Of a stretch of 64,000 bases of DNA, positions 7,538 to 61,139 are shown piece by piece. The position numbers and the translations under genes were made by a program. Location of the stretch: the NCBI GenBank assembly GCA_008632985.1, contig QPGO01000139.1:62001-126000 (forward strand), given 5' to 3'. The notes beneath the pieces were generated by a model. That model was not told the DNA's origin, searched no databases, and was given only the letters and a program-made list of their open reading frames with translations. Each line of letters opens with the position of its first letter. Position 1 is the first letter of the stretch. This DNA comes from Psammoneis japonica. Its lineage: Eukaryota.

Positions 7538-7639
7538 GGTGAGTGGTGACAGAAAATGCATGTCGGCCGAATCCGTCGGGCGGCGCGCGCGAGCGCATTC
7601 TCCATCGTGAGTCTATGCGTCGACCGTCGCCGCAGGCAG

Positions 7640-23880: not shown

Positions 23881-24097
23881 AACTGGTGTGATGCAAAAAA
23901 AACGTAGAATTCCAGTCGAGTTATTCGGAATCTGCTGTTGTGTGCCTGCACAAGGCACAAGGGTGCACCGCAGTCACTGGACCCTTTGTGGTACGGTGTG
24001 CGGTAGAGTCAAGTGAGGCCATTGTTTTTGCCATTGCTCCATTGCGTTGGACTTGTTGGCTTTCACCACCGTCTTTCCCTCCTTGCTTCGCTTCTGA

Positions 24098-26454: not shown

Positions 26455-29400
26455 AAGACCCTAATGGATGGAGGAAGACCGTTGCTCTTGCAGTTACTCT
26501 CGTTGAGGTTCGGATCGCGGTCAGCACCACAGGTGAAGATCACAAAAGAAGGGAAATCCTGCCGGCAGCGCCAACTATACTGTATCCAAGAATCTTTGGT
26601 GGGTGGGTGAGCACAAGGCGTGAATTGTGCAATTTAGAGCAATTGTGAAATCTAGTAGAACAGCGTTGCCACGTTTTCGAATTCCCTCTTGACTCATCAG
26701 CTTCCTCAAACCTTGCCATTTTTGAGCAACACACCACACACCAGAAACGTAAAGCAGAGCATTGCCCTCTCCATGCTAGATTTTACAGATGCATGCGTAG
26801 TCGCGATTTCTGAACTACTCGTATCATTAGATGCCCCGAAGAACAAGTTTTGAACAAAATGAATGTGAGCTACGGCACTTTTTCATGGTGTCTACAAGTT
26901 CAAGCTTGCTTCGGCATCTTGTCAGACAGCGGTCAAGATCACATGAGCTCCTTTCCAGCACCCTGTCCAACTTATTCTGGAAATGTTTCTCATTCTAAAG
27001 CTCCACAGATTTTTCTGGTCAACCACGAACACGTGAGAATTCCAATGGACCCTCATGAAGGTCAGGTGGGCCAATGCTGACAACCCTCAAATGAACTCAA
27101 ACCAACTGCCCATGGGCCAAATGGTTTACAAAATCATGAAGGCGCCCACTGAAGCACAGCTTTGAAAGGATGGCCACTGCCAACCATGGTCTTCAAAGCG
27201 CAGCTGCAAACAGCAAAAGCAAATGGATGTTGCTGAACAGATGGCAGCCAGGACCACAGAGGAAACCAGCAAGAACCCTGGTGGAGCACAACAAAACTGG
27301 TGCAACCACATTGTGCCCATGACAAAACACATCTCATCACACTTGGTTGCAAGAACCAAGAATCCGCCCCCAATGGCCATGGCAGCAATTTGTGCTTGCT
27401 CCATTTTGACTTTGGAGCAGGGTGAAAGACACCACCCAAAGCCAATCTTGGCACCCCACAACACCAATGGACAGGAAATCCCAGAAAACCATGCCAAAAA
27501 GCATGCACAAGAGGCAAAATGGTGCAACAAACATGCTGCCATGAAGTGCTTCAGCAGCCCAGTGTGCACTTTGTTTCTTGCCCTCACTGTCACACATTTT
27601 GTCAATCTTGTTTGCCCTCACACAGCCATGCCACATCCTCTGACAGGGGGGGGGGGGCACAAAGAGCAAATGCTGCCAAGAGCAATGTGACAAGCAGGCA
27701 TTGCCCACAGCTGCTGCATGGCCAAACATGATGAACATCCTGAAGTTGTCACCAAGATTGCAGCAATGCAAAGATTTGCACTGTTTTCAACATGCACCAA
27801 ACGAAGTGACAGGAAGAATTGCTGAGGCTGAAAGACATTTCCGCGCAAATGCTTCCCCATGCCTCATCCTGCTTGCCTTCCTCTTGCAACATCTTTTTCC
27901 ATTTCTGCAGATTTTGACCAAAGCATTTGCAGCAACCCTGCTCATGACCAGCATGCATGTGAAAGAGTTGAGCATGCTGAGAAAAAGTGCACAGCAGCTG
28001 CTGTCAGGGCAACCCAATGAAGCACACATTCTGCCAATCCTTCCAGGGAGCTCATTGTGAACTCTGTCAAGTTGACAGGAAAGTGCTGCAAAGCGCAACC
28101 TTCCTGTTGAAAAACTTCAAAATTGTTGATGTCTGGATGTGGCTGTGGGTGGACTGTTGCAATGTTCCTTTCTGCAGCAACTGCTTGCATGGCATGGTGG
28201 AAGCAAAAATTTGCCCAGCACGTCCCTTTGGCACCGGCAATTTGTTGTGTGTGATGCTGGCAAGGTGAGCATCAAATCCAGCTCTGCAAACTCTTTCAAA
28301 AGCACTGGGACCTTTCTGACATGACAAATTTGAAATGACTGCAGCATGGGGTGGCCCACTTGGCTGACTCTGAAGACAGGGTGGGGCCACAAACACTCTC
28401 AGCTGGCACCCCCAATGTCGCACATTTCAGCTCTCTGCTTCACACCAAGAGTTGGATCTTGTCCAACTTAAAGTGATGCAGACATCATTGCAGCTCAATT
28501 AATTTGTGCAAAACATGCAGATGTGCAGCACTCATCTTCATGCTGCCCTGCCAAATGGTGCACAGGGGGTGCTCTTCTTGACAAAAAGAATGTTTGAAAG
28601 AGCACTGCTTTGCAAGCTTGTCTGTCTGTGGCCCTCAAATTTGGCGCTGATGGTGGCAGAGTGACACAGAGCATCTTTTGCATTTGCAAATGCTTGTAAA
28701 CCTGTGCTGTGTCACAGGTGTGTGGGAATCTTTTGGATCTCAGCACATTGGCAGCAACACAAATTTGCTCATGATCATGACAACCTTGAGGCTTTGTGCC
28801 TGGAAACAGAGCTCCTTCAGAAAACCCAGCCTGCTCCTTTTGAGAACTGCCCCAGTTTGCTTCTTGCTTTGAAGATGACAATTTTTCAGCACAGCAGCTT
28901 CCTGGGTGTTGCTCACTTCATCTGCACACCCTGCTTCTTGCCAAGCTGCACACACATTTTGCAGCTCTCACCCTCTCTGGCCCATGCACTTTTTTCTTTT
29001 TGCCCTGGTTTTGCAAGCACCCAGCCAGCGCTGTTCAGCTTTTGCCTGCACTTTTGCTCAAAGGACCCAGAGATGAAGCAGAAATGATGGAAGACAATGC
29101 AGTGCAGAGTGCCAGTGCAAAAGCTTGCATTGCTTGAAGATGAGACACTCTTGAGCTGTTTGGATGAAACAACACTTTTTTGAGACAATGAAGCTTTGAA
29201 ACAAATCTACATTGAACCATGACAAAGAGCATCATCTGCACAATGACCTGAAAAGCATTGAGGTGTTGTGACAGATGCAATTCATTGCCCATCATCAACA
29301 CATCAACAAACAAACAACCCACATGAGCAAGACAGTTCTGGGTTGTGATGGCAGGCCTCACAGTCTTGTGAATTTTGTCAGCAATGAACACATCATAAAA

Positions 29401-29521
29401 CAGTTTTGCCCAACCACTGACCATCGCATGAGCAGTGTCAACCCATGCGGCACCAGGGGCAAGCGCCACCTCTTGCTTTTTTCACCTCCACCACAAATGC
29501 ACAAGTCTTGACACTTTGACA

Positions 29522-30250
29522 ATGGGCATCAAAGACATGTGGAAGGAGGCGCTTGGAGCATCAATGCGGCACTGTCTGTGCCCTTTGGCATTGCCAAGGA
29601 CAGCATTGTCTGTGTGGCTCACAAAAACTGCCACAGCAAGCGCAATGAAGGCATTGCACAATGTTTGATGTCACAGCCACCGCATCCACCAACTGGGCTG
29701 CTGTTGTCTCTTCAGCCCATGCATCACAAGCTTGTTGCTGATGGCATTGTGCCGCGTTGTGCATTTGATGGATGCCATTGTCCTGTGAAGAGTGTTGCTT
29801 GAGCCGCACACAACAAAAAGACAGTCAAGGCTCAGAATTGGATGTGAGACTTTGTCAGCCGGGCAGGCTCTGCTGAAAAGCCTGGATGGAGCCAGAAGGT
29901 GTCAAGCATGAGTGTGCTCCTTTCAAGGTGGAGCATCACCTTGTGAAATTGGAGGCAGAAGGTTGGATTGACAGAGTTGTGACTGAAGACAGAGATGCAA
30001 CAATTTTGTGCACAAAGGTTGTTTGTTTTAAAGTTGACCTGAGAAATGGAAAGTGGAAAGTGTGCAAAAGGGATGCATTGCCAGATCAATGTCCAATGTC
30101 AAAATGCAAACTTGAAGACTGACCAGCTGTGGCCAATTTGCTTGGATCTGATTGCAACAAAAAAAATCAACAACATTGGATTTTTGTGCATCTTCACCAA
30201 GATTCTTCCTGGCTGAACAGATTTCTTAGGCAAAGCTTTGGACAAGGCCA
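29522..30250 (+). pseudogene. Decayed XPG/EXO1/FEN1-family nuclease
   Basis: MGIKDMWK start, LSVWL, GIVPRCAFDGCHCPVK (VFDG..P.K) and GVKHECAPFKVEHHLVKLEAEGWIDRVVTEDRD (APYEAE..TEDSD). Frameshifted. Confidence 0.72.
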
Positions 30251-30379
30251 TCAGAGAAGCACTTCCCTTGTTTTGGTGGTCTGGAATGCCTGCTGATGCA
30301 CCAGTGGATTCAATCACACGGCATCTCTGTTCAGGCATTGTCCTGTGCTTGATGCCGAAGGAAGTCTGGGGCCACTGAA

Positions 30380-31950
30380 TGCACTGCAACCAACAGAATG
30401 AAGGGTGTGGGGCTCTGTGGTTGGTTCTGGGAAACCAGATCTGGCAGATCTGCTGCCAGCTGCAGCAGCAGTGCCCAGACTGTGGAAGGGCTTGGCAATC
30501 CAATGGTCCAACATTCTTGACAGGCCAACCTTTGCAAGAGTTTTTGACTCCAAAGCACAGCACAGCAGAAAATGATGAGGCAGTGGGACAAGTGCTTCCA
30601 TGGTTTGCACACTTGAATTTTGATTTGATGCCTGTGGAGTGCCTCGTGACTGATGTGCTCAATGTTGGACACCTGCGTGACGTGGATGCCCAGCTGTCAG
30701 TGACTGTGAGGCAGTTGAGGCTGCCACATCTGAACTGAGAGTCCATGATGCACAAGTGTTGGAGCCTGAAAATGTTCCCATTCAGAATTCAGATTGGGCA
30801 ATGGCTGGTTCACAAGGTGCTGGAACTGGCAGATGCATCTGAGGGTTGGGATCGTGATTGTCACTTTGAAAAAGTTGCTGAATTGGAACCCTGCAATGGC
30901 TCAAAGCTGGAACACTTCCATCCAAAGGGTGATGAACACAATCTTGAACGGGGGCTTCCATTGCTCCAAGGCAGGAGTTTGCTTGTGAATGCAATTCAAT
31001 TCAAGCATTTTTGGGCACTTGCAGATGGCACAATCATTTGGTTGTTCAAGCTGCACTGCATTCCTTCCATGAAAACTGAAATCATCTCATCCAACTTGGA
31101 ATCACTGAATCTAAGAAAATTCAAACAGGATGCACCCTCCATGCTGGCTTTGATGGAGAAACTAAGAACACTTGTCATGCTGTGGGTGCTGTGATGGACA
31201 GGGCATGTGCTTGCACACGATTGCAGTGCTGCCAATGTTTTGACAAATTCAAAGGTGTTGCAGCAGAGAGACATTTGAGAGGCAGGGCGATGCCCAAGTT
31301 GCCACTTGACCAATTCCCAATGCCAATTGAATGACTTGCGTTTCAAGAGACAAAAATCATGTCATGGCCCAAGCAGCTTTCTCAGATGGAAACAAAAGAC
31401 AACAATGGCAGCTGCAACGACAACAATGACACCATCAACAATTGCAATGGCAGTGACAGCAATGGCAACAGCAACAATGGCAACAGCCACAATGCAAGTT
31501 TTGAGAAAAAAACCATGCAGCACCACAGCGCCCTTTCTTTCCAAGTGACACCCGCACACTTGGTTGTTGCAGGCACTTCTGGCAACAACCATGCCCACGC
31601 ACTTTGTGACTGCAGAAGATGTTCCAGCAATGATGACACCCATGGACTTCACCACTGCAGGTGTTCCAGCAATGACAATGCCTGTTCTGCACTGCTTGTT
31701 TAAACCTCAGAGACACTGCTCATTTGGTGTCTGCAGAGACAACTGTGCTGCTTGTTTAAACCCCAAACACTCCAGCAGTTGCCAAGGAGACCACTGTCCC
31801 CACCTGGCTTGTGGAGTGGCAAACCAAGGTTCATTTCCACATGGCCCCAATCCAGCATGCAGTGCACAAGGCAAATGTCACAGGAGTGTGGTCACTGCCC
31901 ATCCAATGAAGCAAGTCCCAATGGAACTCCTTCATCATTTCAACATGCAC
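30380..31950 (+). mobile_element. Possible LTR-retrotransposon gag-like remnant with an N/G-rich linker
   Basis: DGTIIWLFKL...LESLNLRKFKQD followed by an NNGS..NGNSNNG low-complexity tract. Resemblance only. Confidence 0.35.
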
Positions 31951-31989
31951 ACTGAACATGCATCAGCGGAGAATCTTGCCATCACGCAG

Positions 31990-33316
31990 TTGATGCAAAT
32001 GCCAAAACAACTTCAGCTCTTGCAGAAACGACTCTGGTGAATTTTGAGAAGACAAATCCAGAGCTTTCAGGCTCACATCTTGCATGCAATTTTTGTCTTC
32101 TTGAAGCATGCTGATTGCTTTGGCACTCCTGGCTTCTCACAGCTTGGCTGTCTGTGCCATCATTTTCACTCAATTGCCAGCTTCATCTCAACAAATTCAT
32201 CAGGCATTTCCTTTTTAAAATGCTCATGAGGCATCAGAAGGATGGACAAGACTTTGCCGCATGTGCCCCACCTTGGTGCCCATTTGTTGACACAGTTCAT
32301 TGCAGTTGCACACGTGACACCAAGCTCCTGAGCAACAACCTTCCACACTGGACAATGATGAACAAAGTGCTTCACCATTGACAGCTGCTCAAACTGACTT
32401 GGGCATTCTGGGAGGTGCACTTGAACATTCCTTCGTTCTTGTCAAGATGGATTTTGGGAAACTCCAAAGGGGTGTCAGAAAAGAAGGATTGAACATGGAG
32501 CTTGAGCTCTTGACATGTGGCAAACCCAAACATGTCCTTGGCTGCATTCGGGTTGCTCTTGTGCTGAGATTCCAAAGTCAGCTGGGCTGTTTTGCTGCAC
32601 TGCCATCAAGAAAATCTGTCATCAGTTGCTTGACATCCACTGACAAATGACTGTGTCCTGTGCAGCAGCAAGTGCTCTCTTCTGCATGGCCGCTGTTGAA
32701 GAGCTGTTGTTCGTCATGCTCAAAGTGCCCACACACGGTGACACATTTTCTTTGTTTGCACTCTCTTGTTCTCTTTCATTGACATGATCACCAAATGAAT
32801 GTCTTTCATGTGATTCCTTGCAATTGTCAAGCTTGGCAAAAGCAGCTTTTTGTTCCCCTTGACAACGCTCCTGCTGCCTTGGTTCGATCACTTCATTTTG
32901 GCTTGAGTTGATTTTCTCTCTTGGGACACCGGGGCAGAGAAAGAGTCAAGGCTTCTTGTTTTTTATGTCAAAGAGAAGCATTTGTTGGGGTTGTGTGGTG
33001 AAATCTTTGCAAGTTCTGATGGTCTCAATGGAGTGGACGCTTCTTGCCCTTGTCGAAGTGACTCATTTGCGATGCCGTCCAATGGTGCCTGGCAATGGGA
33101 GCACACTTCAAATCCCCCATGTGTCCATCGATTCCAAGATTGGTCAGCACAGCCTCTCTTGAAACAAAATGGACTTGTCAGAGTTCCCAGAGAGATCCAG
33201 CCATTTGCATCTGCTGGCACGCGGCTCAGCTTCTCCTGCTTCGACGGCACTCCAGGCCCCAACTGCATGCGCAGCAATGTCATTCTCTTCCCTGTGGATG
33301 GCGGTGTGGATGCCAT
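31990..33316 (-). mobile_element. ISL2EU/PIF-Harbinger-like transposase remnant (THAP-like, HTH, start of DDE)
   Basis: HCCACSWGLEC...IARHHW (THAP-like), VAQELGVTCATAMNCVNKWAPRW (HTH) and NDGTD (first catalytic Asp of DDE_Tnp_4). Confidence 0.55.
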
Positions 33317-33587
33317 TGTCGACTTATGCCACAGATGACTTTACGGGTCCGTCGTCGATTGTGATGGATGCCCCAGAAAATCCATTTTGTTCATCTTTCA
33401 TCTTTCGCGTTGTGGCAGCGATTCGATTTTTAGCAACAGTGGCATCGATGGAGATAAACAAATAAACACTTCATAACCCAAATGACTAACAAGACTCAAA
33501 ATGTTTATCGTACACAGTATTTTTTGTCGATTTTTGCGGGCGGAAGCTGGAACGAAGCAGGAAGCAACCAAAAAAACGCGTTGCAAG

Positions 33588-34849: not shown

Positions 34850-35487
34850 TACATTGGGCAGGGCCCTAGGAACTGAGTGCTCGACTAGTCGGATGTGCAA
34901 TGATGTCCAATGACCCAACATTTGTCTTGACTTTTGAAGACAGATGAGACAGGCTAAATCTCAAGTCACAAGCCTGCATCCCAAGGAGAATTGCAAATGG
35001 GATCCATCACAAGGAAAAGGAAAAATTGTTTGCACGAGATCATGGTGGATTGTTGGGTTTTTGCGTTCTGCCTTGGTTTGATGTTTGTCTCCACGCTGGG
35101 CACAGATGCAAAGTTCACACCTTGGCAAAGTGCGGTCAGAGTCTGCACCCCGTGCCAGAGCATCCTTTGATCTGTCCACTCATCACACCCAACGATTTGA
35201 CATCACACTGGGTTGCATCATTTTTCCCAGCTGCTGCTTCCTCAGCACTGATTTGCTTTGTTCCACTGCCAGAGAGAGAGATGGAGAGAGAGAGAGCTCT
35301 GTTGGCAACCAGGTTGCACCCAGTGTGAAGATTTGAGTCAGAAGTCAGGGGCAGAAATGCTCGTGCCAATGCAAAGCTTGGGAGGTTGAGCAAGCTGAGG
35401 ATGCTTGGGGTGCCCATGTCAAGGTCCTCAAGGCAACTGGCAAACAACAAAATGACTGGTCAAGTCAAGAGAGAGATTTGTGTTGCT

Positions 35488-37263
35488 TGACAGGATTTGA
35501 GCAGGATTTGGGTGCGCACGAAATGTCACGTGCTGTTTAGTTTGCCGCGCACAGTTTTGTGTGCTCTTCAGTTCCGCGCGCATGCGCGATGCAGTTTGCT
35601 TTGAGCCACACGGCTCACAAGAACAACAACAGTGGCCCGATCACACCGACTTGCACGTCTTTTGGCTCCTGTGACGGTCTCTGAGCAGAGACTCATCTGC
35701 CATTTAGACAGCAGCAAGGAGTCATTGTTTGAGTTCTTGCCATTTGCCTTCAATTTCTGTCAGATTGCCTGAAGTCTAGTGCCTCGAGACTGGGCCTCCT
35801 GGCTGGATGCCCCAAGTCTCGTACCTTGAGACCAAGCCTCCTGACTGGATGCCCCAAGTCTCATGCCTTGAGACTGGGCCTCCTGGTTGGATGCCCCAAG
35901 TCTCACACCTCGAGACCAGCCCCCCTGGCTGGATGCCCCAAGTCTCGTACCTCGAGACCAGGCCTCCTGATTGGATGCCCCAAGTCTCGCACCTTGAGAC
36001 TGGGCCTCCTGGTTGGATGCCCCAAGTCTTGCACCTTGAGACCAGGCCTCCTGGTTGGATCCCTCAAGTCTTGCGCCACAAGACTCGGCCTCCGGATTGG
36101 ATCCCTCAAGTCTTGCACCACGAGACTCGGCCTCCCAATTGGATCCTTCAAGTCTCATGCCTCGAGAGACCAGGTCTCCTGATTGGATGTCCCAAGTCTC
36201 GTGCCCCGATGCTGGGCCTCCTGATCGGATGCCTCAAGTCTCCTGCATCGAGACTGGGCCTCCAGATTGGATCCTCCACATCTCATGCCTCAAGACTCGG
36301 CCTCCGGATTGGATCCCTCAAGTCTTGCGCCACGAGACTCGGCCTCCGGATGGGATCCCTCAAGTCTTGCACCATGAGATGTCTTGCTCCAATCCAATCC
36401 CCAAAGGCTTGCACCTTGAGACTCGTTCCTCCAATTGGATCAGTCTCTCAGGAGATGCAGCTGAGCTTGCAATCGGATTGGTGGAACACAAGACCACCGC
36501 TTGTGCCTTTGAACTCATGCTTGCTCTGTTCCCCGAGTCGTGCAAACGCCATGCCACCCTGCTCGAGCACTGCTCTGTTTTTCCAGCAGCAGCCCAGTGT
36601 GGCAACCGTTCCAAGAACCAACAGACGGCTGTCAGTCTTTGCGACCTTCACTCAGGGAGTGAAGGTGATGTCAACTTGTTTGCATTGTCCTGCAATGTTG
36701 CCCCGCTGTTCAACATTGTCAACCAGACCAAGCTTTGCTCCCTCCATTGCAAGTGTGGATGTGGAGTCCCACAAGATCCCAAGTGTGCCTTGAGCTTTGA
36801 AAAGCACAACGGCATCTGCAATTGGGGAGACACAGCTCATCTCAAGATGACCCACTTGGAGAATGCAACGTTGCTCCAAGATCTTGATCCTTTCTTGTCT
36901 CCTCGTGTTTTGGTGCTTTGACTCCAAAGTTCTTTAGTCAATCCGAAGTTGAATCTGTTTCTGTGACTCTTCAAGCAAACTGGGGAGTGACAGGATTTGA
37001 ACAGGATTTGGGTGCGCGCGAAATGTCGCGTGCTGTTTAGTTTGCCGCGCACAGTTTTGTGTGCTCTTCAGTTCGGCGTGCACGCGCGATGCAGTTTGCT
37101 TTCGAGCCACACGGCTCACAAGAACAATGACAGCAGCCCGATTGTGCCGACTCACACGTCTTTCGGCTCCTGCAACGGTCTCTGAGCAGAGACTCATCTG
37201 CCATTTAGACAGCAGCAAGGAGTTGTTGTTTGAATTCTTGCCATTTGCCTTCAATTTCTGTCA
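35488..37263 (+). mobile_element. Internally deleted copia-derived LTR element, 1776 bp, LTRs 35488-35762 and 36988-37263, 5-bp TSD TTGCT
   Basis: LTRs read TGACAG...CTGTCA. TTGCT lies at 35483-35487 and 37264-37268. PPT-like ggggag precedes the 3' LTR. Internal HCKCGCGVPQDPKCALSFEKHNGICNW resembles the CoDi pre-RT YKYGYEVPR...ALxxDxxNG..W motif. Confidence 0.92.
35786..36447 (+). repeat. 42-bp minisatellite, about 16 units, inside the LTR element
   Basis: Unit gagactgggcctcctggYtggatgccccaagtctYRYRcctt, translating as MPQVS[YCHR]LETxPPxW. Confidence 0.95.
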
Positions 37264-38916
37264 TTGCTTCTTGCAGACTCAGTGTAAAAAGTGCCAAGTT
37301 GATGGTGCTGCAAGTGCTCAGAGCTTGGCATCTGATGACAGGCTTTTCAGAGCACTCGAGCTGGGTGTGAGAAAGAATGCCAGCAACAGAGGCCACAGAG
37401 GCAAAAAGAAGAGGCAACTGCTCAGTGAAACAATGCTGCAAAATGCTCAGAATTAAGAGCACAAAACTTGCTTCATGACAAATGGCACAGGTGCTCTGCA
37501 CTCCTTGCCACTTCCATGCAGACTGCCTTGCCCAGATGAGGGCCTCAAGAGTGAGTTGAAGGCTCAATCCTGTCATGACTGGCGCAGACTGGGAAAGCCT
37601 CAGAGATGCATTTTTGGACACTGTGCCCACCAGTGATGAGCTGCAAGAGCTTCTGACCAACCCATCCCAAGGTCCTGCACTGTTGGGCTAGACTGCTGAC
37701 TTTGTGCATGGCCGCTGCATTTGCATGAACACAAACTTTGTGTTGACTCATCCAAAGTCTTGCTCCTGTCAGTCTTCAACATGATGGGATGCAAGCCCTT
37801 CAAAAACCTGAGAGTGGAAGCAGCCTGCTCTCAAGCTTTTGGGCACTCTGCAAGAGAACACTGCGCTGGTTGCAACGGAACCTTTGGTGCTTCCATCTTT
37901 GACTGACCTGCTTTTGTTGCATTTGGCAAGTGCCGTGAACAAGTGACTTGCGCCACTTTCTGAGGTGCCTCTGCCACATGACATGCACTCCCAGCAACTG
38001 CTCAACTGTGTTGATGGCACATTGCTTGCACCCCTGCTGCCACCCCTTCCATGGCTGCCAGCTGACCCCAGCACCCACCGCAGCCATGACTGGAGACCCT
38101 CTGCCACTGTGCCAATGCTGGCCCTGACCAGGGCCTCTGATTCAACCACTCCATTGGCCCCACCCTGCCTGAACCTCACCCCCCCAAGAATGCATGCCTC
38201 CTTCTGCTTTTCTTTGTGTGCAAATCTAAGCTGGCTGCATTGCTCCAGGCACTGCACTCAGATGCCCCAATGCAGGCATGAACAGGAGCTCCAAAATGTG
38301 CGCACCAGTCTCACGTTGGTGTCATCTTTCCCTTCTGCTTCATGTGGCTTTGAGTTGCTTGTCAATTTCCAGGTTGGCGCAGTTCTCAAACTCCAACATG
38401 TTTTTCACAATCTCGCTGTGTCAAATTGTCACATCCAATGCATTGCTTGCACTCCAACATTGTTTTTCTTGCCCTTGCCTTTTTGCATGCACAAATCATA
38501 ATTTCGTGTCCTCACCCATCCTTTGATTTGTGCTTCAATGGGTCGTTGCTCCAGGCACTTCACCAAACTTTGTGGAGCACTTCATTGAACTTTCAGTCAA
38601 CTGCCCATTTCCAAATTGGCACAGCTCTCTCCTGCAAAATGTTTTTTGTTTGCTGTGAGAATCACACTGCATCAAATCATTGCATCGGTGCAAACGTGCT
38701 GCACCAAAGTTGATTTTTTCATTGACACAAAACTGATGCAGGATCGAGAGCCCTGACTGGCACCTCCTGTTCGGCAAGACTGGGCGCAAAGCAAATTTAA
38801 TTGGGTTCGATGAAACCCTCGCACGGAAGGACGGGTTGGACATCACCAGCACTGTCACTGCTGTCGACTTGCCTGACGGCGTGGTGGTTCTACTGTGCAT
38901 GCACGAGAGTCCAACG

Positions 38917-39096
38917 GAGGAAGGAAGCTGGATCGATGGGGTGACAGCAAACTGTCTTAAGGGAGTTAGACACACTTCATAGATGACCAAGATCATGATG
39001 TATTAACCCAATTTATGAAACATGCTACTCGTGTATGAATGATGATGGAGCGGTGTACAAAATTTGAGACCAATTCGGACATGCACAAGATTCCGC
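38917..39096 (+). repeat. About 180-bp direct repeat, copy 2 (3' flank of the MFS gene)
   Basis: Aligns to 34672-34849. Confidence 0.9.
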
Positions 39097-41885: not shown

Positions 41886-42255
41886 CTCGTCGTCCTTGTC
41901 AATGTTGTCAAAATTGGTCTTCAATGAGGCTGGGTCACCCGCTGTCACGCATTTCACAACATTTTTACCAGTACAGGCAGTGTGTACCGGTAGGGCCTAC
42001 TCTAGAAGTACCAGGTAGGTTGAAAATGAGTGAGTGTACAGTATGTACGTATGTGCGTGGCAAGATCTTTGCAATAGCCCCTGCCCCTGCCCTGCCCTGT
42101 TGAAGATCGCTACTGTACATTTTTCAGATCACTTGTCCGTCGATTTTTTTAATTAGGGGACCTCTCTGAAAAATTGAAATATTTCAATTCGCTCCAGCAG
42201 CGATTTTCAGCGTGGAGCGCCAAAGCGAAAGATGCCACATCGGGACCAAAGCCAT

Positions 42256-44520
42256 GACGACGATGAACAGCGCTGCAGCGACGCTCGGGCCCTTCGACTT
42301 CATCAGCCGCATTGGTTTGGGTGACATCGAGCCTGAAGAAGTCAAGAAGGCCACAGATGGGAGAAAGTTCACACCATCCCAAGAAAGAGACAACTTCTCA
42401 AAACGGCAGCTGACAACCAAGCAGCAATTCTGGCGGATCTTCGCACTCGCTTTGGGTTGAAAGCGGGTGAAGTTGATCAACGCATTGCTCAATTTGAAGA
42501 AACGATAAAGGGAATGCCCAAGCTCTCGAGTGGCAACTTCAGTGGATCCGTGTGCAGCGAGTGCTGCTTCAATTTTGCCGCTCTGCTCAAAAACATGCTC
42601 GGCACCTCATCCGACAAGCCGTGGACCAGAGAGTCGTGCAAGAAGTGTTTGGATCCACTTGTGTGTGCTCACAAGGAAGCAAAAGAACCAGCACTGGAGA
42701 AAAAGCATGACTGCCTCAACTCCTGCATTGTGAAGCTCAGCAAGGAACAGCAGAGTCGCGGCCATGGCGCAGATGCCATGGACCCGCCAGATGGGGACAA
42801 GACTTGTGTTTCATGCGGTCATGACTCACTTGATTTCCCATGCTCAAGCATGGCAAATCATGAGGCAAATGCAAAGAAATGACAAGAATGTGAGGCAGCA
42901 TTGTCAGAACACAACCACGACCCAGTGGCGTGGCGAGCCGCAAACAACAAACAGAAGCCTGCCGAACCCAAGCACACAGCTGCACATGCACAATGCCACT
43001 GTCACCAAATGCACTGCATGGGCCACATGCAAGGCACGTGCAATGCATGCAAACAAGATCCACCCAGACCACAGGACGATGGTGTGTGCCCTTGTGCGGC
43101 ATGCCTTTGTGAATGCAAGGCAGCAACCCAGGTGAGTCGTGTTGTCGAGCTCATCCTGTTTGCATGTGATCAACGTCATGTTGCGTGACTGCTTGCATGT
43201 CGTTTCTGTCTTTGCACTGCATCTTCACAGTTTGACAAGAAGCAGCAACTTGTGCACATTGCATTGAGAAATGCGCAGAGTGCGAACCGTCTTGACACAA
43301 GGGAGGAGCTCCTCAAGCAAGCTGTTGCCGATTCTTGCATCTTCGGAGCGCTCAACACAGGATTTGCGAATGGCAGCAGGGCAGCTGCTGAAGTTGCAGC
43401 CCAGGCATGTCCGCATGCTGATGCCGTCGCAATTTGTTCACAACAGATGAGCATGGGGCACTGTCTGCGGCAAAGGCATGCGCCGGGTTGTTGCCATCAT
43501 TTGCAAATCAGGCCGAGGGTGAGGAGATGAGGCAGCTTCGTTCTCTCTTTGACAAACCAACTGCCAAGGCAATTGGGCCCGCGGGTGACCTTGTTGATGC
43601 TTGAGGAACTCATGCAACAAAGGGACATCGAAGTGGGGACAATTGCATCAAGGACAGTGCAGGTCCTTCCCGGGGAGGACTCGGTTCAACTCATGTGAAG
43701 ACCAGTCCACCGGTGCCGGCACAAGGTGGCAACATTTCTTCACGTCACGACGTGCCAGTGGATGTTGCACCTCCATTTGGCCACCTGATTGGGCCCTCAG
43801 CTGTGGCCACAACACCAGCCACAGGGTTGGCAACCAGCAACCAGGGCTTTGCTCCACCGCCTGTGAGCCCCAATGAATGCCTCCATCTTCTCCAGCACAA
43901 TCCTGCTGAACTTCATGCCCAGATTGAGGCACTCAGAAAATGCGAGCATTGCCAACCCAGCTTTCAATCCCCGCCTTTTCATGCCGCAGGTTCCTTGCAA
44001 CAAATTGTGAATGACCCATCTGCACTGCAGGAGCAGGTCCATGCATGTCAGCATCATTCACAGCAGGCCAGCCAGAAACCAGCAGCTGTCAACAAGGAAA
44101 CGATGGCGCAAGAAGCAATCAATGTTGATGAGGGCAAAGATGAAGGGAACACACTCTCTCTAAAGATGGGCAAGCACTTGCATTTGCCAGCAGTTTTGTT
44201 GGTTGGTGCGTGGCTCACACAGTTTTGCACTCATGCAATCACTCAGAGGCAAATGACACACCTTCCAAGGGAAAACGCGCTCGAGCCACAATCAGGCTCC
44301 ACGATGCAAGCTTTGGGATCCGAGCCCTCGATGGTGCGACAGCCGATGAAGCTTTTGACTCGTATGAGTGTTCCACCCCCCATCCCACGGAAGTCAGCAA
44401 CCACCTCCAAGCAGTCAATCGCTCAAGGAAAAGGAACTGGGAATTCAACGAATTCGACTGCGAGGCCAAAAGGCCTGGATCGTCCGACACCATGGGGTCA
44501 GAAGCGGCAGCCAATGTGGT
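42256..44520 (+). pseudogene. Second (cargo) ORF of the Tc1-like element, Cys-cluster protein, disrupted, with one apparent intron (about 43132-43230)
   Basis: Continuous reading frame with in-frame TGA stops: CVSCGH...CHCHQMHC...CNAC...CPCAACLCEC. Donor cag|gtgagt and acceptor cttcacag. Confidence 0.6.
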
Positions 44521-44849
44521 GATTAGTCTAAATCGCCACCAGAAGAAGAGGTCTTCTCAGCTGTTGTGGATCGTCCAAGAAGACTGTTGTAGATGGCCAG
44601 ATGGGCCAGCTCAAAGCAGAAAAGAGGGAACACAGCAGTGGACAGAAACACCGTAGATGTGATTTGCAACTTCCAGAATGCAGCAAACAAGAGACACCTT
44701 AGAAATGAATTGCAACTTCTAGAATGCAGCAGACAAGAGATGCCGCACCTTAGAGTCGAATGGAAACTGTCACACATCACATGAGTGCGGCACTTGTGAG
44801 GCATGCTGAGATGAAGAATGGCAGTGGCTGACAAATTATGTTCTAGCAT

Positions 44850-45900
44850 CTGTCAATTTTTTTGTCTAAAACCGACCTCATAAAAACATGGGCGGCAAGG
44901 ACCAAGCGTTCTGACAACAGAACGCGACTCTCACACAAGATCTTCGTCGTTGAAGATCTTGTGCGAGCGGTCCTTGAGGGCCCCTTCGAATGTGTTGAAC
45001 ACGAGTTCAATGGGGCCGTCCACCGGGCAGCAGGGGGTGCGGAACACCACCCGGTGGCCCGCCATGAGAATTGATCGGACAACTGGGGGGTGGTGGTGCA
45101 CCACCAAGTTGTCCATCATGAAGCATCGTCGCCTGTGACCAGGTGCCCAAGGGCCAATGTCTGCTAGAATCCCGTCAACAAAACTCCTGAATGGTGTCAC
45201 ATCAGCTCCAGCTTGCTCCACAAATTTGCGCCAATGATGACCACATGGAGACATCGGCCTTCAAAAGAATTCTGCCTCTTCCATGACCATGCACTCCAGT
45301 TTTGCGGCATCGGCACTCCAGTGATGTCTTGGCACGTGATCGGTTCGAGAACTCAGCAAGAATTTTTGCTTCGTCTGCATCAATCACATCTTCAAGCTCA
45401 GTGTCAGCAATTCCAAAGGGATGCACCACACACCAAAACACTGCTCACTGTAAACACAATGTGGCTCACAGGCTTGGTGCACAGTTGTTGACGATTTCTT
45501 CCGTGAAAACCCAGTTCGCTGCTCCACCTTCGCAATCTGGCCCTCGTTGCACCAAATTCCAGCGGCTTGATGCAACATTGCAATCTTTTCCAACCCAGTT
45601 GCATCAGGGAAGCACATTGCACAAAGGGCCAATGGGACAAGCTCCGGTCCTTGCAACACATGAGCTCTGATGTTGCCGGCATGCCGATGCTCACAGCAAG
45701 CATTTTCGATCCGCGCACGGTTCCGCCATCGACTGAGGGTCCATGTGACTGGATGCAGCTTCAGTCTGCACTGCTCTCTCACTAAAAAATCTTCATTTCC
45801 AGTCACACAACATTGCAAACAAATCAGTCTCAAATCCCTCGAGTGTGCAGGAATTGGCTTTCTCACAATTGTGCCGCGACGGTGCACGGTCTTTGTGGGG
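44850..45900 (-). pseudogene. DD34E transposase, disrupted
   Basis: IDADEAKI, then MMDNL-x34-PIE (FRTPCCPVDGPIELVFN). N-terminal HTH-like TLSRW and GFSRKKSST. Confidence 0.9.
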
Positions 45901-46911
45901 GGGGGGGGGGTTCTGGCATTTTTCTGCACTTTTCCATTCACCATCTTTGCAGTGGCATTCCACATCATCATGTGCATCAATGCAACATGCAATGTCATCA
46001 TCAAAGTGTTTGCTGCACTCCATCTGACGTCCGATGGTTGGTCATGATGTTTTTTGCCGTGTGAAACCACGTGGCGCATCGGATTCTTGAAATGTTTCAC
46101 AATTTTTCAGAGAGGTCTCCCAATTAAAAAAATCGACAGACAAGTGATCTGAAAAATGTGGTGATCATCGCATCGTACAGCACAGTGCTGCACTGCATGT
46201 ACAGTGCATGCTGCATCAGCCAGCCCGCCAGGCCAGGCAGACACAGAAATGCAGCAGTGCCGCCACCGGCATTCACAGGTCCGCGAAGAATCAAACAGTT
46301 GCTCAATCATGCTGTGCTTACGAAGAGACCAAACAAAAAGAGGCAGACTAGAAAGGTGGCGTTCAAGGTGCGCAAATGGTGTGATGATGTGCCACATCTT
46401 CATGGCCAATGGCCATCGCCTCGGTGCCGGTCGGCACACATTGAAATTTGCTCAAGCGTGAGATGGGGGGTGCTTTGGGTCTTTTTTCGTTTTGTTTTTC
46501 CATTTTTTCATCCCCAACACTTTTAAAGATTCTTCTCATGTAAGAAAGGAAGGAGGACACACTTAGACTAAAGGACATGGTGCATGCATCTGTTTGTTGC
46601 GATGCGATGCGATGCGATGCATTTCTGGGAAGCAGAAGAGAAAATTCGGAATTTTTATGAATTTCGCAAAAATCTGTGTTTTGACAAAAATGGTGTGTAT
46701 GTTTTGGCGGGAAACAATGTTAATATTAGTTATTGAATACGGTATATAATAAGACAACTGGAGGAACAACGACACAGGATACAAAAGGCTTTAACGATGT
46801 GATGTGATTGATGATAGGCCTTTCTTCTCCTCTGGAACGATGTATTCAAAGCAAATCCGCAGCCGTACATCATTTGTGAGTAGCTTTGGCGATATGAAAA
46901 CAAGCGACGGC

Positions 46912-48850: not shown

Positions 48851-49054
48851 TTTCGGAGGGACACCGTTGAGTGGAAAAACAGAGACGACATCATCACGCA
48901 CCCACACTCGTTCATCAGACGTCTGGCAATGTTCAAAAAAGAAAGATACCATACCTTATATTTGTCGTGAAGCTAGAGATACGCTGCCTCGCAACTGCCT
49001 CTACGAGTGCTTTTCCCTCCTCTCTAAAGTAGCTATAGCCCTAGACCCTAGCAC

Positions 49055-49940
49055 CAGCCAGCTGTGCCATGGGTCGATCTCGCTCACCGGAAAAGGAGAG
49101 AAACATGTTGTGCTGACAAATGCGCATGCAAAGAGAGGGTGCCACAAGCGCAAAGCATCATTTGAGAGCTGTCGACATCACAAAACATGAGCTTGTGGCA
49201 GCTGGCTGCAAGCTGCATTTGTGGGGGAGGGCGGGGGTGTCCTTGGCTTGTTGAGATGGCACTTAGATCCACAACAGCCCTGTCTTGCAAGGTGAGTTTG
49301 ATGGCGCACGCTTGGTTGCTGCAAACAACTTGCGAGAGGGCTTTTTTGTCCAAGCGCTGTTTTTTTCTCATCACCTGGGCTGGAGAAAAACTCAGCCCAT
49401 TTCTGTCAAGCTGAGCTTTTCTGTGCTGCAATCCAAAAAAGCAATTTTTTCATTTTGTGCAACAAAATGAGGCGTGCTCACAGCGACAAGAGCTGGCTGC
49501 AAGAAGCGGGGTGGGGCGCAAACAAAAGGAAGCAGCGCAAGGAGCATCGGCGCACTGGCTGTGGGGGCTGGCTGGGGGTGTTTGACAATGGTTTGCATGA
49601 CGAGGAGAGTGCTGCTGGCAAGAGCTTCCAAAGACTGCCACAAGAGGGTCGCCAGGCACACTGCTGGCAGCTCTGGCCTTGCTTGGAGCCTGGGCAACGC
49701 GGCAAAACCAGCTGCAGAGGGGCTGTTTCTCCAACCAGAAGCGCAACTCACTTGTCTTTTGCAATGCACTGAGACAGTCCAACTCTGACTGAGAAGAGGT
49801 GCACACCTGCTGGCAGCTTTAGAGTGGACGTAAAGCTTCAAGCGGGGGGAGGGGGCAGTGGTTTGGTCCTGGCATGCATGGCTGGGTTGCCCTGTACAGT
49901 CGTGTGGGTGCCACTTAAGTGGCTGTTGCTTTGCAAGACT
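49055..49940. mobile_element. Short TpA-depleted decayed repeat block, family not assigned
   Basis: TA nearly absent while many CG are retained. Starts immediately after a CTAG-rich patch. Confidence 0.55.
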
Positions 49941-56559: not shown

Positions 56560-59500
56560 CACGATGGCCAGAGCCAACCGAGGCTCCTCCGATTTACCGA
56601 CGTGCACGATCACCAGACTTGGTCTTGATCCTAGCAGACAACAACCAACACCACCACTGAGAGAGCATTAAAACCATGTAGGTTAAAAAACAATTGAGAG
56701 GAGTCTCATGGCTCGATGCATTCGGCAGATGCGTGCAAGTCACACTGGGGGGTTGGGCAACATGTTTCCCACACCCTCCGCAGGGTCTCCCCACTGGAAA
56801 CAGCAAAGAGGGCTCAAAGGCAAAACCCTGGATCCAGCCTGGGGGGGGGGTGATCCAAGCTTTGATGTAAACCCATGCCACGGTGTCATTCATCATGGTG
56901 GAAGTTTGTTGCAAAAGCAAATCCCCGCGTCGAGAGGGCAGCTCAGCTTGTCCTCTCAATCCCTGGGGCCCGACATCCAATTGGCTTTCCTCACTCACAT
57001 CCTCAGTGGCTCCCTTGGCTGCCTGAGAGAAGTGTGAGCACATGCCCACCCCCCCCCCCCCCCCCATTGAGAACCCTCATTGGTGGTGGCCATGTGCCAC
57101 CTGCGCGACACAAGAAAAGCACAAGGAACCACACTCTGCAGTGCTTGGCAAATTTGGCCAACTCTTTTTGCTTGCATTGCACAAGTGTGCCACAAAAAGG
57201 GTTCCAGGAGCAGAGTGACATCTGCACAGTGATGCTTCATTCGATGGGTGGGGCATTTTTCCTTCTTGGCCAAGCGGTTGATCATGTCAACGTCATTCAT
57301 GTCGACCGTTTTCATGATGGCACAAGAATCCAATCCTCACCAAAAAGATCTTGATGCATCACATTTTTCCTCAATGTCAGCATGCAAAGAAACATCCAAC
57401 TGAATCAACAACAAAAAGTGCAAATTGAAGACACAGCACAAAGCCTGATGAAGCTGAGCATTTGAGGCTCCAGAGGTAAGATGTTTCCCCCGAGATTGCC
57501 GGCCCACTGACTCTGCCCAAATTTTCATTGCTCGCCACTGCCTTCTGGAGCCACAAGTGGATCTGAGTGCCAGAGCTGGTCTTGTCACAGCACAGAAAGA
57601 GATGTCAGGGCTCCCTGTGCTCTCCCTTGACCTTGCCCAGCAAAGCCAGAACCACATGATGGTTTGAGTGGGCCCAAAGGCACACCAAATCAAGCAACAA
57701 TCCTTCTGGACCCTGGAATGAGAGAACAAGGCTCGCAGCAAAGCAAAAGCCTGCAACAAAAAGCCAAGTGTGACCAGAGCTGCTGAGCTTGGAGAGTTGA
57801 CCTTGTCTGCCACCTGAGACAGCAAACAGCTCATTGACTTTGCTGAAGTGGCTCAATCGGGGCACCAGTCCTGTCCCACTCAGTGCTTGCAACCAGCAAA
57901 GAACCTCTGGTGCCACAGGGGTGCACAAGGGTTGCTGCAGATGTGCAAATGCTGCTTTCCATCCAAGTTGACCATTGCCCATGCCTTCAAGTTTGCCTCT
58001 GCAGTGGCTCAGACCTGATTTGAGTGGGCCAAGCAAAGAAGTCTCCCCAAACTGTGTCAAGCTGAGTGCGCAGGTGGTGGGGCCCAAATCCAAGTCCCAA
58101 ACTGAAACTTGGTGGGCAGGTCAAGTGGAGAGCTTTTTGGGCAATGCCACCCAGCAATGTCATGGCCCTTTTGGCACCAATTGACAGGAGACAGCAACAC
58201 TGGTTTGGGGGTGCCACCCCAATCCTCAATCCAGGGTGACAAAGTGGGAGACCTCTCGAAGGCTCCCAAATGCAGTGGAATGAAGGACGTCATGCATTTT
58301 CCTTCCATGACTCCCTTGGTGAGAACTCCATGGGAGATCCTGTCAGTTCCTTGAGCCGCCAGTGTCCAAGTTTCATGCCGTGCACCAATTGGAGTTTCGG
58401 GCACCACAAGTCCAAAGTGAGATGCCAGCCCTTTAAGAAAGGGTTCAAAAAGTCACACATTGTGGCCAAATGCACAGTGCAACCCCTCTTCTTCTCCAGG
58501 TCCTTGAAATCAACAAAAGATGGCAACTCAATTCTTCCTTCCTCCTGCACTTCCTTGTGGACAAGCAGCAGGCTCTGGATGATGAGCTTGGTCTTGTCCC
58601 ACTTTGCCATGGACATGGTCGCCATCAAGTCTGTGCTGTTCAGCACTCAGAAGATTGCTGCTTTAGCCCAAGCACCAATTTGCTCTCTCAACGGTCCCTC
58701 TCCTCACTTGATTTGATCATTTCAGCTGCAGAGTCATGGTTTTGAGAGAAGTCACTGCATTCCACAGATCTTCATCACAGTGTGGTGTCAGCGCTCCACT
58801 CTCAGGAGCAAATTGGGTGGTGTCAGTTGTTTGATGGACGTTTCTCCAAAGTGTGGAACATGACACAACTTCACATCTTTTGGCAAGTGGCACTCATCAG
58901 ACCCTTTCAGAACAAGAGAAGAGATTGAAAACTGAGTGGCCAGCATTGGCAACTGCATTTGGGAGCAGTTGTGGGAGTTGTTGGATGAACACAATGATGC
59001 AGTTCACGGGCACAATGCAGAAACAAGGAAGTCTTCTCAGCATCAAGATTCCAAAGCAGAAGTGAAAGCCATTTGTTTGTGATCAGATGATTGCCCAGTG
59101 AGAGACAAGGCACATCTGCTGGATTTGGCAGAAGAACACTTGACACATTTGACACATCATCTCTGCAACTGGCTGGCCATGGTCAAGCCAATGTTCAAAT
59201 CAAGCATCAGAGAAGCAAAGCGGTTTGCTGCCAGAGGTGCAAGAACCATTGCAAGTTGTTTTGGTGTGGCGTCACCCTCAGGTGATGCTGATTCTGGCCA
59301 ATCATCACATGCTCCTGCTGCGCTGTTGGTGCACAGGGGGTGTGGGTTGGCTTGTTGCTGGAGTTGCAGGGTGGAAGTGCAGCAGCACTTTAAAATGTGG
59401 ATTTTTGGTTTTGTTTTGTTTTGCTCTTTCAATGGTGGTCAGAACTTGTGTGGTGCATTCTGGGTCCCCAAGTGCTGGAGTCGTGATGCCATTTGTCTTG

Positions 59501-61000
59501 CCACTCACCACATGTTTTCCTTGCTGAACCCCAGCCCCCTTCTTGGATCATCTGCAGACATTTTAAGATCACACTCAGCAATGGCCTGACACTTCTCAAT
59601 CCACTTCATTGCCCTGGGGGGAACCATGGTTTGTGCACCATGTCTCCAGGAAGGTTAAAGAATGTGAGAGCAAAGCCCACAGGATTGTCTGGGAGAGAAG
59701 GATCTCCCCTGCTGCAAATCTCTTTGGCCCAACAGAACATCCTCACCACATTGCATGGACTTGGCATCACACCCATGAAGAGGCAAGCCCATTGTTCATT
59801 GTTCATTGTTCACAGCAGACGGGAGGCCATTCAAACCCTTTGGGTTCTGGGAGACACTTGGTGAGAGGAGAAAGGTTGACAACCACATGTGGTCTAATCT
59901 TGAGATCCACAAATGTGTTGAGGAAACAATCCCCCAGATCCAAGTCCACTGAAAAGGTTGGTGCAGTCATGCAACCCAGTGCAGACTTGGGAGAAGGGAG
60001 AAAGAAACCTGGGGCCCATGAATGAAGTGTCATTCAGACTCAAGGACATGCTGTTTGCAAACCATCTTAATGTCTTCAACAATCTCCACCAACTCTCCTC
60101 CCTCAGGTTCCTGACACACAATCTTGGGGACCCAGAAGCAGTCAGTGGACTTTTGACATGCTCGCACTTCAGGTGCCCATGAAGGTGGACCTTCTGGATC
60201 TTTTCCACACCATTTGTTTGATCTTGGAATCTGCACCTTAAATTTGCTGTCACCTGGAATGCTGGGAAAGAGGATCTCTGATGAAAATGGGAGTGCCATC
60301 AGCTGCACCAAGAAGTTCCTCCCCTTTTGGTCAATGCCAGAAGAAAAGGGTGGAACCCCTGTCTCAAGCCCACCAAGAACTTGGGAAAACTTGCTCCAGA
60401 GCTTCACAACCAAGTGCAGCATTGACCCCCCTGCTTCCGACCATGTTGGTCTGCATGAGTTCACTGCAAGGCAAACAATGCCACAGCCCAGGTCTCCCCA
60501 TGAGAGTCCCAAAGACAATTGCAAACAAATGCCAAAGACACTGGCACCACCCCTGGAAAGCACCCAATTGCAGCACCTCAAGTGCCTCTGGAGACATGGG
60601 GAACAGCAACACAATCCGTTTGTCCCAAAGCCAAAATGGAGGAGCCACACTGACGCTTTTGGCAGCCTCATCCATGATGAGTGAAAGGTCAATCCATGCA
60701 TGGGGCAAGAATCTCCCCAACTCAGGGAGCCACATCTCATCAGCACATTGAGGCTGCGGGCATGTGCTGAGATCAGCATTGAACAGGAAAGCTCCAGGCT
60801 GCTGGCAACTCATCTCCATCCACAAGCTCCAACCACCCTGAGATGCAAAAGCAAGGTGGACAACCACCACCTTGTGCAGGTCCATTGGTTGCAAGCAATC
60901 ATTGCTTGAGTGACAGTCCCTGGACCCCGCAGCAGGCACATTTTCACCCATGACCTTGTGATTGATTGTGTGTCCAATGGCCCTTGTTTGATGCATGGGC
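56560..61000 (-). mobile_element. Tyrosine-recombinase (DIRS/Ngaro-like) retrotransposon remnant
   Basis: RT: CFWVPK..DIKMVC, WAPGFFLP, DLDLGDCFLN, MGVMPSPC and NLPG. Then LEKKRG...PFLKGWHLTLDLW and AQGTDRISHG...FIPLHL...WAPPPA. YR tail: DVDMINRL...MKHHCAD. Confidence 0.8.
58690..59560 (+). mobile_element. Non-LTR (LINE) 3'-end fragment nested in the YR retrotransposon
   Basis: LWELLDEHNDAVHG (W..W..RN..VHG motif) and HLCNWLAMVKP. Splits the YR-element RT. Confidence 0.55.
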
Positions 61001-61139
61001 GGGGGGGGGGGGGGGGGGGTCACATCAAAACCTGATGCAAAAAACTTGGGTTGCATGGACATGACTCCACCAACCCACCTGTGGGGAATGGAAACCAGTT
61101 TGGCACTCTGCAGATCATCACACCAACTTCCTTTTCCAA

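Follow-up and report, generated by a model that had tools for sequence, protein, structure and literature searches.

What removes the dinucleotide TA from parts of this genome, and does it act together with the loss of CG or apart from it? The question is raised by a 64,000-nucleotide window of Psammoneis japonica DNA (contig QPGO01000139.1, positions 62,001 to 126,000 of the forward strand; positions below are counted within the window), and above all by a dead Tc1/IS630-type transposon near 42 to 46 kb. An initial annotation had noted that this element kept abundant CG but only about 20 TAs in 4 kb, and had proposed that TA loss was uncoupled from CG loss. The count was right: 17 TAs lie in 42,200-46,100, where 176 are expected, and 21 in 42,118-46,165. 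CG is plentiful, with 156 in the former interval, but not intact, since 208 are expected (survival 0.75, Poisson p 1e-4). The uncoupling that emerges is therefore a qualified one: TA loss is a chemistry separate from and faster than CG loss, yet the same domains are hit, so that the uncoupling concerns chemistry and rate, not targeting.

Eukaryotic and dense in genes, the window has spliced transcripts, to judge by GT..AG joints in run X2, which is RNA-like. The clusters nearest to its CobW protein have Bacillariophyta as their commonest phylum, in keeping with a diatom-like host. A hidden Markov model using TA alone divided the window into two sets of seven: host segments totaling 29.7 kb, with observed/expected ratios of 0.51-0.66 for TA and 0.87-0.98 for CG, and TA-poor blocks totaling 34.3 kb. 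The host segments hold 1,232 TAs and the blocks 107, or 0.07 of the host frequency. The intact genes matched by Pfam fall within host segments, and a Pfam scan of 142 open reading frames (ORFs) from the blocks gave one credited match above the cut-off, to EMP70; a Yme1-like_N match on a 10-residue stretch of a 42-bp array was discounted as arising from the repeats. The pool of TA, CG, TG, and CA is equal in blocks and host (225-257 per kb), while the share of TG plus CA rises from about 0.61 in the host to 0.82-0.96 in the blocks; the lost TAs and CGs thus reappear as TG or CA. Once the TA and CG rules are applied to host DNA, its trinucleotide correlation with the blocks goes from 0.72 to 0.97.

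Survival was calculated against counts expected from host DNA matched by flanking bases. The three long blocks had indeed lost both dinucleotides (TA survival 0.05-0.07, CG survival 0.12-0.20), as the annotation held for older blocks. A stretch at 49.1-49.9 kb that it had set beside the element has a single TA, but its 23 CGs fall short of the 38 expected, and it is not Tc1-like, having no terminal repeats and the depth of single-copy DNA (60.4 in run X1). Over all seven blocks, TA survival is homogeneous (0.03-0.11; chi2 8.5, p 0.21) and CG survival heterogeneous (0.12-0.75; chi2 291), and the two do not scale together (Spearman 0.14, from seven blocks of one window). On the other side, all seven TA-poor blocks are short of CG and no host segment has a CG observed/expected below 0.87; TA and CG loss therefore share their targeting. 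The block boundaries were set on TA, so the even TA level across blocks is partly built in, and polarity was accordingly tested directly at codons.

The element supplies those codons, and its assignment as Tc1-like is sound. Self-BLAST finds terminal inverted repeats of 73 nt at 91.8%, with 60-nt arms 95% complementary, and the transposase relic matches an intact relative, P0001, by tblastn at E 1.7e-97. A frameshift-aware alignment of the two has 196 of 360 columns identical. The DDE_3 profile matches the relic at E 0.0014 and another relative, P0002, at E 3e-10. In P0001, 34 residues separate D277 from E312, a stretch that aligns without gaps in the relic; we take this D-34-E spacing to be the DD34E signature of IS630-Tc1-mariner transposases.

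None of the 17 tyrosines of P0001 is kept in the relic, where the codons read CAY (seven), TGY (six), CGN (two), Lys (one), and Phe (one). Its 42 arginine positions, in contrast, include 14 CGN and 10 CAN or TGN codons (Fisher p 3.5e-4 versus Tyr), so that 14 of 24 CG-type arginine codons survive. When only invariant columns are counted, 0 of 6 Tyr (apart from one more that reads CGC) and 9 of 12 CG-type Arg are kept (p 0.009). In this element, TA is essentially gone at a time when 25-40% of CG is gone, which bears out the suggestion that the TA process acts ahead of, or faster than, CG decay. Both strands of this DNA transposon were hit (7 CA versus 6 TG products at Tyr codons). At conserved I/M/T/N/K codons, a first-position A became G in six of seven cases after T, with none kept, and in 1 of 27 after other bases; no second-position A→G change was found at conserved K, N, E, D, Q, or H of the relic. 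AA is likewise retained in the blocks (ratio 0.95), and the requirement for a 5′ T is near absolute.

The element's own copies tell a similar story. The arms of the terminal inverted repeats differ by four substitutions, including two TA/TG-or-CA pairs and one CG/TG pair. The element is multi-copy in run X1, with indels at 45,453 and 45,256 in other copies, and 432 of 513 differing places among the copies are transitions. The best 40 of 514 rows of differences between the window and other copies were inspected and 39 classified, one X2-only row being left out. Among the 34 of these inside the element, 9 are CG kept or lost, 3 are TA kept or lost, and 8 form four TG/CA doublets. The listed differences are richer in CG than in TA, consistent with CG decay being under way and TA loss mostly finished. 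Among the X1 differences listed outside the element, three of five are pyrimidine-purine (YR) transitions.

Table 1. Positions of the element, its parts, and the TA-poor blocks in the 64,000-nucleotide window, with observed TA and CG (expected counts in parentheses)
Feature	Positions	Strand	TA	CG	Basis or remark
Dead Tc1/IS630-type (DD34E) transposon	42,116-46,160 with target-site positions; 42,118-46,158 element proper				
Left target-site TA, intact	42116..42117	+			Sequence
Left terminal inverted repeat	42118..42187	+	3 retained		Self-BLAST
Left arm, cargo of undefined kind	42200..44150		1 (89)	78 (105)	
Patch of surviving TAs	44150..44900		13 of the 17 survivors		Includes 46-bp direct repeat at 44,644-44,768
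Dead DD34E transposase (DDE_3, IS630-Tc1)	44865..45944	-			Two frameshifts, one in-frame TGA
Right terminal inverted repeat	46087..46158	-			Self-BLAST
TG at expected right target-site TA	46159..46160	+			Sequence, single site
Right flank, single-copy	46162..46520		4 in 97 YR steps	16 in 97 YR steps	X1 depth about 60, as in host genes
Short TA-erased block	7508..8757		3 (59)	32 (67)	
Comparison block, both lost	13678..23905		32 (445)	63 (532)	
Comparison block, both lost	26997..33325		14 (273)	64 (329)	
Second 4-kb block, CG half retained	34887..38958		16 (167)	108 (201)	42-bp array
Short TA-erased block	49050..49820		1 (34)	23 (38)	
Comparison block, both lost	56685..64000		19 (289)	70 (353)	62-bp tandem array

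The impression that survivors are mostly YTAR (Y, pyrimidine; R, purine) was correct: 10 of 17 in 42,200-46,100 (p 4e-4) and 18 of 29 in 14,000-23,900 (p 6e-7) have this context, and 65 of 107 over the seven blocks, compared to 241 of 1,232 (19.6%) in the host. Counting all NTAN tetramers, as the annotation had proposed, gives a survival that is far from context-flat (chi2 132, df 9), ranging from 0.012 for ATAT through 0.09 for CTAG and 0.24 for CTAA/TTAG to 0.48 for TTAA. CG survival is flat in the same classes (YCGR 0.300, mixed 0.302, RCGY 0.307). In a two-strand model, the fitted k for the 3′ base is 0.37 for A, 2.06 for C, 1.18 for G, and 2.42 for T (2dLL, twice the log-likelihood difference, 122). 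At sites without a neighboring YR step, survival is 4/354 for TAC, 4/305 for TAT, 50/586 for TAG, and 86/414 for TAA, so that TAT fares no better than TAC. The next base on the 3′ side has an effect as well (2dLL 56): TAAA (59/187) and TAGA (36/204) survive, and TAYR survives better than TAYY (38/777 versus 12/906, p 2e-5). The fitted order of loss is thus TAYY > TAYR ~ TAG > TAA, with TAAA and TAGA most resistant. The proposed target, TAY on either strand, holds as a preference for a 3′ pyrimidine, but the preference is graded and extends to the second base. Given such a preference, TA survives mainly if both strands read TAR, that is, as YTAR. TTAA survives at 0.60 (23/38) in CG-poor blocks and at 0.19 (3/16) in CG-rich ones; the difference may reflect new TTAA building up at steady state. 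The products agree over the TA-poor blocks as a whole, the TG share at Y..Y sites being 0.581 compared to 0.539 in the host (p 0.001), with TAC strongest.

Several observations weigh against the picture of a fast, TA-directed adenine deaminase with this 3′ rule. All expected counts take host DNA as a stand-in for the ancestor. The product test gives p 0.43 in the Tc1-like element alone and is reversed (0.487) in 56.7-64 kb; it also ranks TAG at or above TAT, whereas survivors rank TAT above TAG. No strand-coordinated runs were found, lag-1 autocorrelation being 0.03-0.05 in the blocks and 0.07 in the host, in a comparison of low power. At the right target site, TA became TG where the context rule favors CA. 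TACG shows no preferential loss (7 survivors where 55 are expected, compared to 12/906 for TAYY, in small numbers confounded by CG decay). Amphioxus ADAT2, a natural DNA editor, prefers GAA and not TA in the part of the report available (PMC10354150). Lastly, invariant Tyr238 (45,228-45,230) reads CGC, which needs two changes. A column of the 42-bp array (35,772-36,361) has TA 2, CG 2, TG 3, and CA 4 in 11 units; it and Tyr238 are double changes between TA and CG that neither rule gives singly. A secondary CA→CG activity refilling CG was rejected for now, with none at nine conserved His/Gln and none at six Cys/Trp columns; it is also disfavored by the CG-rich blocks, which have no CGC excess, leaving Tyr238 and the one array column.

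Parts of the element and its surroundings depart from the average. TA is the target site of Tc1/IS630 elements. The left site still reads TA and the right one TG, which is probably a mutation of the target TA after insertion; an empty-site joint was absent among the joints listed. The left-arm cargo spans about 2 kb with long open frames, and six of its ORFs compared with Pfam gave one weak match (GATA, E 0.03). TA survival is 0.01 in this arm compared to 0.42 in the patch at 44,150-44,900, at the 3′ end of the transposase. That clustering was not equaled in 20,000 permutations and lies partly inside the direct repeat, so the survivors are not independent. The patch may be a protected site or a later insertion. 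Beyond the right end, the low TA of the flank at 46,162-46,520 suggests one-sided erasure spreading past the element, although another decayed element could be there. Six host intergenic stretches, picked by eye, have a TA share of 0.21-0.48, and the left flank (41,760-42,115) retains 19 TAs.

Could something other than an adenine-directed mutator produce this pattern? TpA is its own reverse complement, so chemistry directed at T fits the same counts: a T→C change before A on one strand is an A→G change following T on its complement. Thymine in an RRTA context might be oxidized or otherwise modified in silent repeats by a TET/JBP-type activity, to 5-hydroxymethyluracil (5hmU) and then 5-formyluracil, and miscode or be misrepaired as C. 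In dinoflagellates, transposons carry 5hmU that TET/JBP enzymes produce and that overlaps 5-methylcytosine (5mC), in a study whose available main text has none of the words "diatom," "TpA," or "T-to-C" (PMC11572971). We consider this improbable, given that the nearly pure transitions and the order of 5′ T, 3′ C up, and 3′ A down match TadA-derived editors. In addition, 5hmU mostly still pairs with A. The coincidence of TA-poor and CG-poor domains could also be read as the trace of an error-prone, Pol-eta-like polymerase (WA→WG; W, A or T) filling repair patches at deaminated 5mC, with TA loss a by-product of CG decay. The signature of Pol eta is WA, and that AA is not lost speaks against it, as do the single first-position change in 27 after non-T and the second-position A retained at K and N. 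TA loss is also nearly complete where merely 25-40% of CG is gone, so that it runs ahead of what a by-product of 5mC repair would allow, and TA beside a YR step survives better, not worse, as the TAYR and TAYY counts above show. We regard this as a distinctly unlikely source. The element might instead have been TA-poor before it inserted, from a TA-stripped parent or by composition, which would make its contrast uninformative on local rates; another copy has TA at 3 of the 34 places listed, and the copies may share erased sites. This would surprise us. Of the four TG/CA doublets between copies, two (Ile230 and Val19) sit at codons for which, on our reading, relatives point to TA as the ancestral state, and the two terminal inverted repeats differ at TA sites. 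The search for related loci, which found 1 among 195 candidates in metagenome contigs and 0 among 90 in viral contigs, gave a relative (L001, 43% identity) that is not TA-poor (TA observed/expected 0.65-1.06 across five 500-bp bins). Even an inherited TA poverty would mean that TA disappeared from the lineage far faster than CG did. An assembly or polishing artefact is scarcely credible: run X1 is possibly the window's own sample and so not fully independent, but its contigs reproduce TA-poor sequence, matching the window over 46,490-50,300 with four other letters, and strand symmetry, confinement to non-genic blocks, and codon-level polarity all speak against it.

A separate question is whether the uneven CG loss reflects age at all. 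It might follow methylation density, set by domain size and distance from the edge, with TA erasure reaching past methylation. CG survival drops as blocks get longer (Spearman -0.71, p 0.07, n = 7); at five long-block edges the outer 500 bp have a CG share of 0.100, compared to 0.026 inside, with TA flat (naive p 2e-14); and the single-copy right flank has lost TA and not CG. The two short blocks, including that at 49 kb, match the long-block edge level of CG (p 1.0 and 0.33) and are thus poor evidence for youth. However, with simulated boundary-selection bias the edge excess weakens to p 0.058 for the outermost 250 bp and to p 0.021 for 250-500 bp, and the interiors of both 4-kb blocks retain a CG share of 0.13-0.15. 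More than 1 kb from its edges, the Tc1-like element has a CG share of 0.153, compared to 0.026 in long-block interiors, a level that edges do not explain, and its matching ends and many close copies point to youth. We hold position rather than age to be a tentative alternative, rather unlikely overall; it agrees with a two-process explanation and may apply to the short blocks.

Other features of the window can be set beside these results. A broken copy of a conserved host gene, EMP70/TM9SF (27,009-27,617, minus strand, with the EMP70 relic placed at 27,129-27,617; Pfam E 1.4e-16), with 203 codons lacking Tyr and two stops, lies inside a block that lost TA and CG; the erasure thus extends to copies of host genes, or to captured ones. 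Searches gave no usable relative of this relic for codon polarity, and polarity in old blocks thus comes from composition. Direct repeats of 190 bp (82%), at 34,669-34,849 and 38,914-39,096, flank the 34.9-39.0 kb block and retain several TAs, and its interior has a 276-bp duplication and the 42-bp array of 14 units. A SET-domain gene carries at its 3′ end a tandem duplication of 110 bp (26,234-26,455), which lies 540 bp away from a TA-poor block; its copies differ by three substitutions, one of them TAC/TGC. Very TA-rich intergenic tracts with short CTAG/TAGAG-type repeats lie upstream of host genes at 25,400-25,520 and 56,380-56,520; one of them adjoins a TA-poor block yet is untouched. A CobW-family GTPase gene (46,896-48,850, plus strand) with His-rich repeats and two introns from X2 joints (48,331-48,441 and 48,479-48,573) stands between two TA-poor blocks, mostly unaffected. 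At 48,785, in its 3′ end, window and X1 differ as TA/TG (TG in X2 too), and at 49,451-2, in the 49-kb block, an X1 contig reads TA where the window reads CA; both differences are possibly recent events. X2 cover is almost nil on the Tc1-like element and was not used as evidence.

Repeat-induced point mutation (RIP) of ascomycetes offers an obvious parallel, with domain-restricted, dinucleotide-specific transitions, destroyed transposon ORFs, and possible leakage into flanks. RIP makes C:G→T:A transitions that enrich TpA, and so runs the opposite way: TpA is removed here, down to 0.07 of the host frequency, and not enriched. RIP is triggered by duplicated sequence. Copies of the element are many, but the depth found at 80% likeness for 46.2-46.5 and 49.05-49.8 kb is that of single-copy DNA, and any older copies may since have diverged. 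RIP further depends on homology pairing, on RID/DNMT4, and on the sexual cycle.

A likeness in the same direction has been published. Among the papers listed by our literature search on TpA hypermutation, which left subscription papers mostly uncovered, the sole match was a preprint on the alga Bigelowiella natans, and no diatom report was found. In the mutation-accumulation lines described in its accessible part, some of which had a greatly raised de novo rate, A→G and T→C together made up 230 of 231 changes in hypermutable regions, every one at TpA (bioRxiv 10.64898/2026.01.13.699255). In a region of nucleocytoplasmic large DNA virus (NCLDV) origin, u(AT→GC) was 6.85e-7 compared to 3.9e-9 for u(GC→AT), about 175-fold (Mettrop et al., bioRxiv 10.64898/2026.01.13.699255), a gap that already implies independence from C→T decay in that alga. 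As in our window, the available account has TpA in integrated DNA turning into TpG or CpA, with either strand affected, in foreign or silent regions, far faster than C→T, and able to hit single-copy regions. Here, too, the A:T→G:C change is restricted to TpA (Tyr→Cys/His 13/17, none kept) and confined to foreign or putatively silent regions, with host genes spared. As far as the preprint could be seen, the target there is integrated NCLDV and virophage DNA, in contrast to DNA transposons and a host-gene relic here, and TpA-poor coding sequences are enriched for DDE and reverse transcriptase domains. Erasure is about 93% complete in this diatom, a stramenopile, compared to Rho 0.45 in the B. 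natans NCLDV region. Here it is layered on CG decay and has a 3′ context rule, while the rate was measured there and is deduced here. The enzyme is not named in the accessible text, which proposes ADAT2, and the words "CpG," "context," "trinucleotide," and "diatom" do not occur in its main text. TpA→TpG/CpA hypermutation is therefore already published; the flank rule and the layering of two rates are added here.

The initial annotation had likened the TA process to TadA-family deaminases. In the portion of the study available, engineered TadA-derived DNA editors make A→G changes, favor a 5′ T, and are aided by a 3′ C and hampered by a 3′ A (PMC8989541), and we likewise see A→G with 5′ T, though this is indistinguishable from T→C before A. 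A PyAPy motif for such editors did not turn up among the papers listed. The likeness has limits: those editors prefer 5′ T by 25-52%, compared to a near-absolute need here, and TAT is hit here as well as TAC. Nor is the native motif favored; according to the part seen of another study, the natural TadA enzyme requires TACG/YTACGAA within the stem-loop of an RNA (PMC12255301). For the other process, diatoms methylate transposable elements via DNMT5 and some have DNMT4 relatives, as stated in the accessible part of one report (PMC9998398). Deamination of 5mC at CG in DNMT5-methylated transposons would account for the slower, near context-flat loss of CG to TG/CA and cannot remove TA.

In our reading, silent, repeat-derived domains are exposed to two separate point-mutation processes, both ending in TG/CA. 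One is a fast, targeted A:T→G:C mutator acting on integrated double-stranded DNA, on either strand and at TpA only, and favoring a pyrimidine run 3′ of A, with TAYY the best site and TAAA and TAGA resisting. The other would be the slower, ordinary, context-flat decay of methylated CG. If the first saturates, with about 7% of TA left, during the course of the second, young elements would look TA-empty and CG-rich. This scheme takes in the observed polarity, strict 5′ T, action on both strands, graded 3′ context, difference in rate, and co-location, and we are highly confident of the two processes as described. That CG loss is due to 5mC is probable by analogy with the work on diatom DNMT5, and differences between blocks presumably reflect age.

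The fast process would be enzymatic: a protein of the deaminase fold, brought to silenced chromatin in defense of the genome, would deaminate adenine (deoxyadenosine to deoxyinosine, which is read as G). Since both strands of a DNA transposon were hit after insertion, we rejected RNA editing with later retrotransposition, and UV damage was rejected by inference, pyrimidine-run contexts being the resistant ones. Retention of AA disfavors a WA polymerase, and the lead of TA loss over CG loss disfavors repair of 5mC. Judged from sequence, what remains would be a step that modifies a base at TpA sites of silenced DNA, and adenine deamination seems the simplest of such steps. The counts are the same for A-editing and T-modification, and so the class of enzyme is something that we infer; on balance, we lean toward an adenine deaminase. 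That it belongs in particular to the TadA/ADAT2 lineage, whose HxE-PCxxC enzymes work through an inosine intermediate, is doubtful. The part of a survey available describes a deaminase that is confined to stramenopiles and carries SAM and Tudor domains (PMC3239186); by analogy the mutator need not be TadA, with such a protein as a candidate. It is conceivable, if speculative, that diatoms have a dedicated RIP-like defense, in which a natural double-stranded DNA adenine deaminase with strict TA specificity, preferring TAYY over TARA, sweeps newly silenced transposons ahead of CG methylation and slightly beyond it.

The signature of TA erasure may be widespread. Another DDE_3 relative, P0138 (ENA assembly, 389 aa), has a single Tyr and His or Cys at five of the six conserved Tyr columns covered; the 167 other proteins have at most two, P0109 having 2/2. 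By its sequence, P0138 may be a further case in another organism.

In the literature searched, targeted A:T→G:C hypermutation of chromosomal DNA comes down to one preprint on one rhizarian alga, with no enzyme named. A diatom genome with near-complete erasure on ordinary transposons widens the phenomenon across SAR (stramenopiles, alveolates, and Rhizaria), and supplies evidence against TA loss as a by-product of CG decay. The motif, with its strict 5′ T, the order TAYY > TAYR ~ TAG > TAA, and the resistance of TAAA and TAGA, provides a quantitative benchmark for any enzyme candidate. The two clocks can order insertions, TA going first and CG later. With Tyr changed to Cys or His and TAA and TAG stops erased, such elements escape protein-based annotation. 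If true, a natural double-stranded DNA adenine editor would be of interest to the base-editing field.

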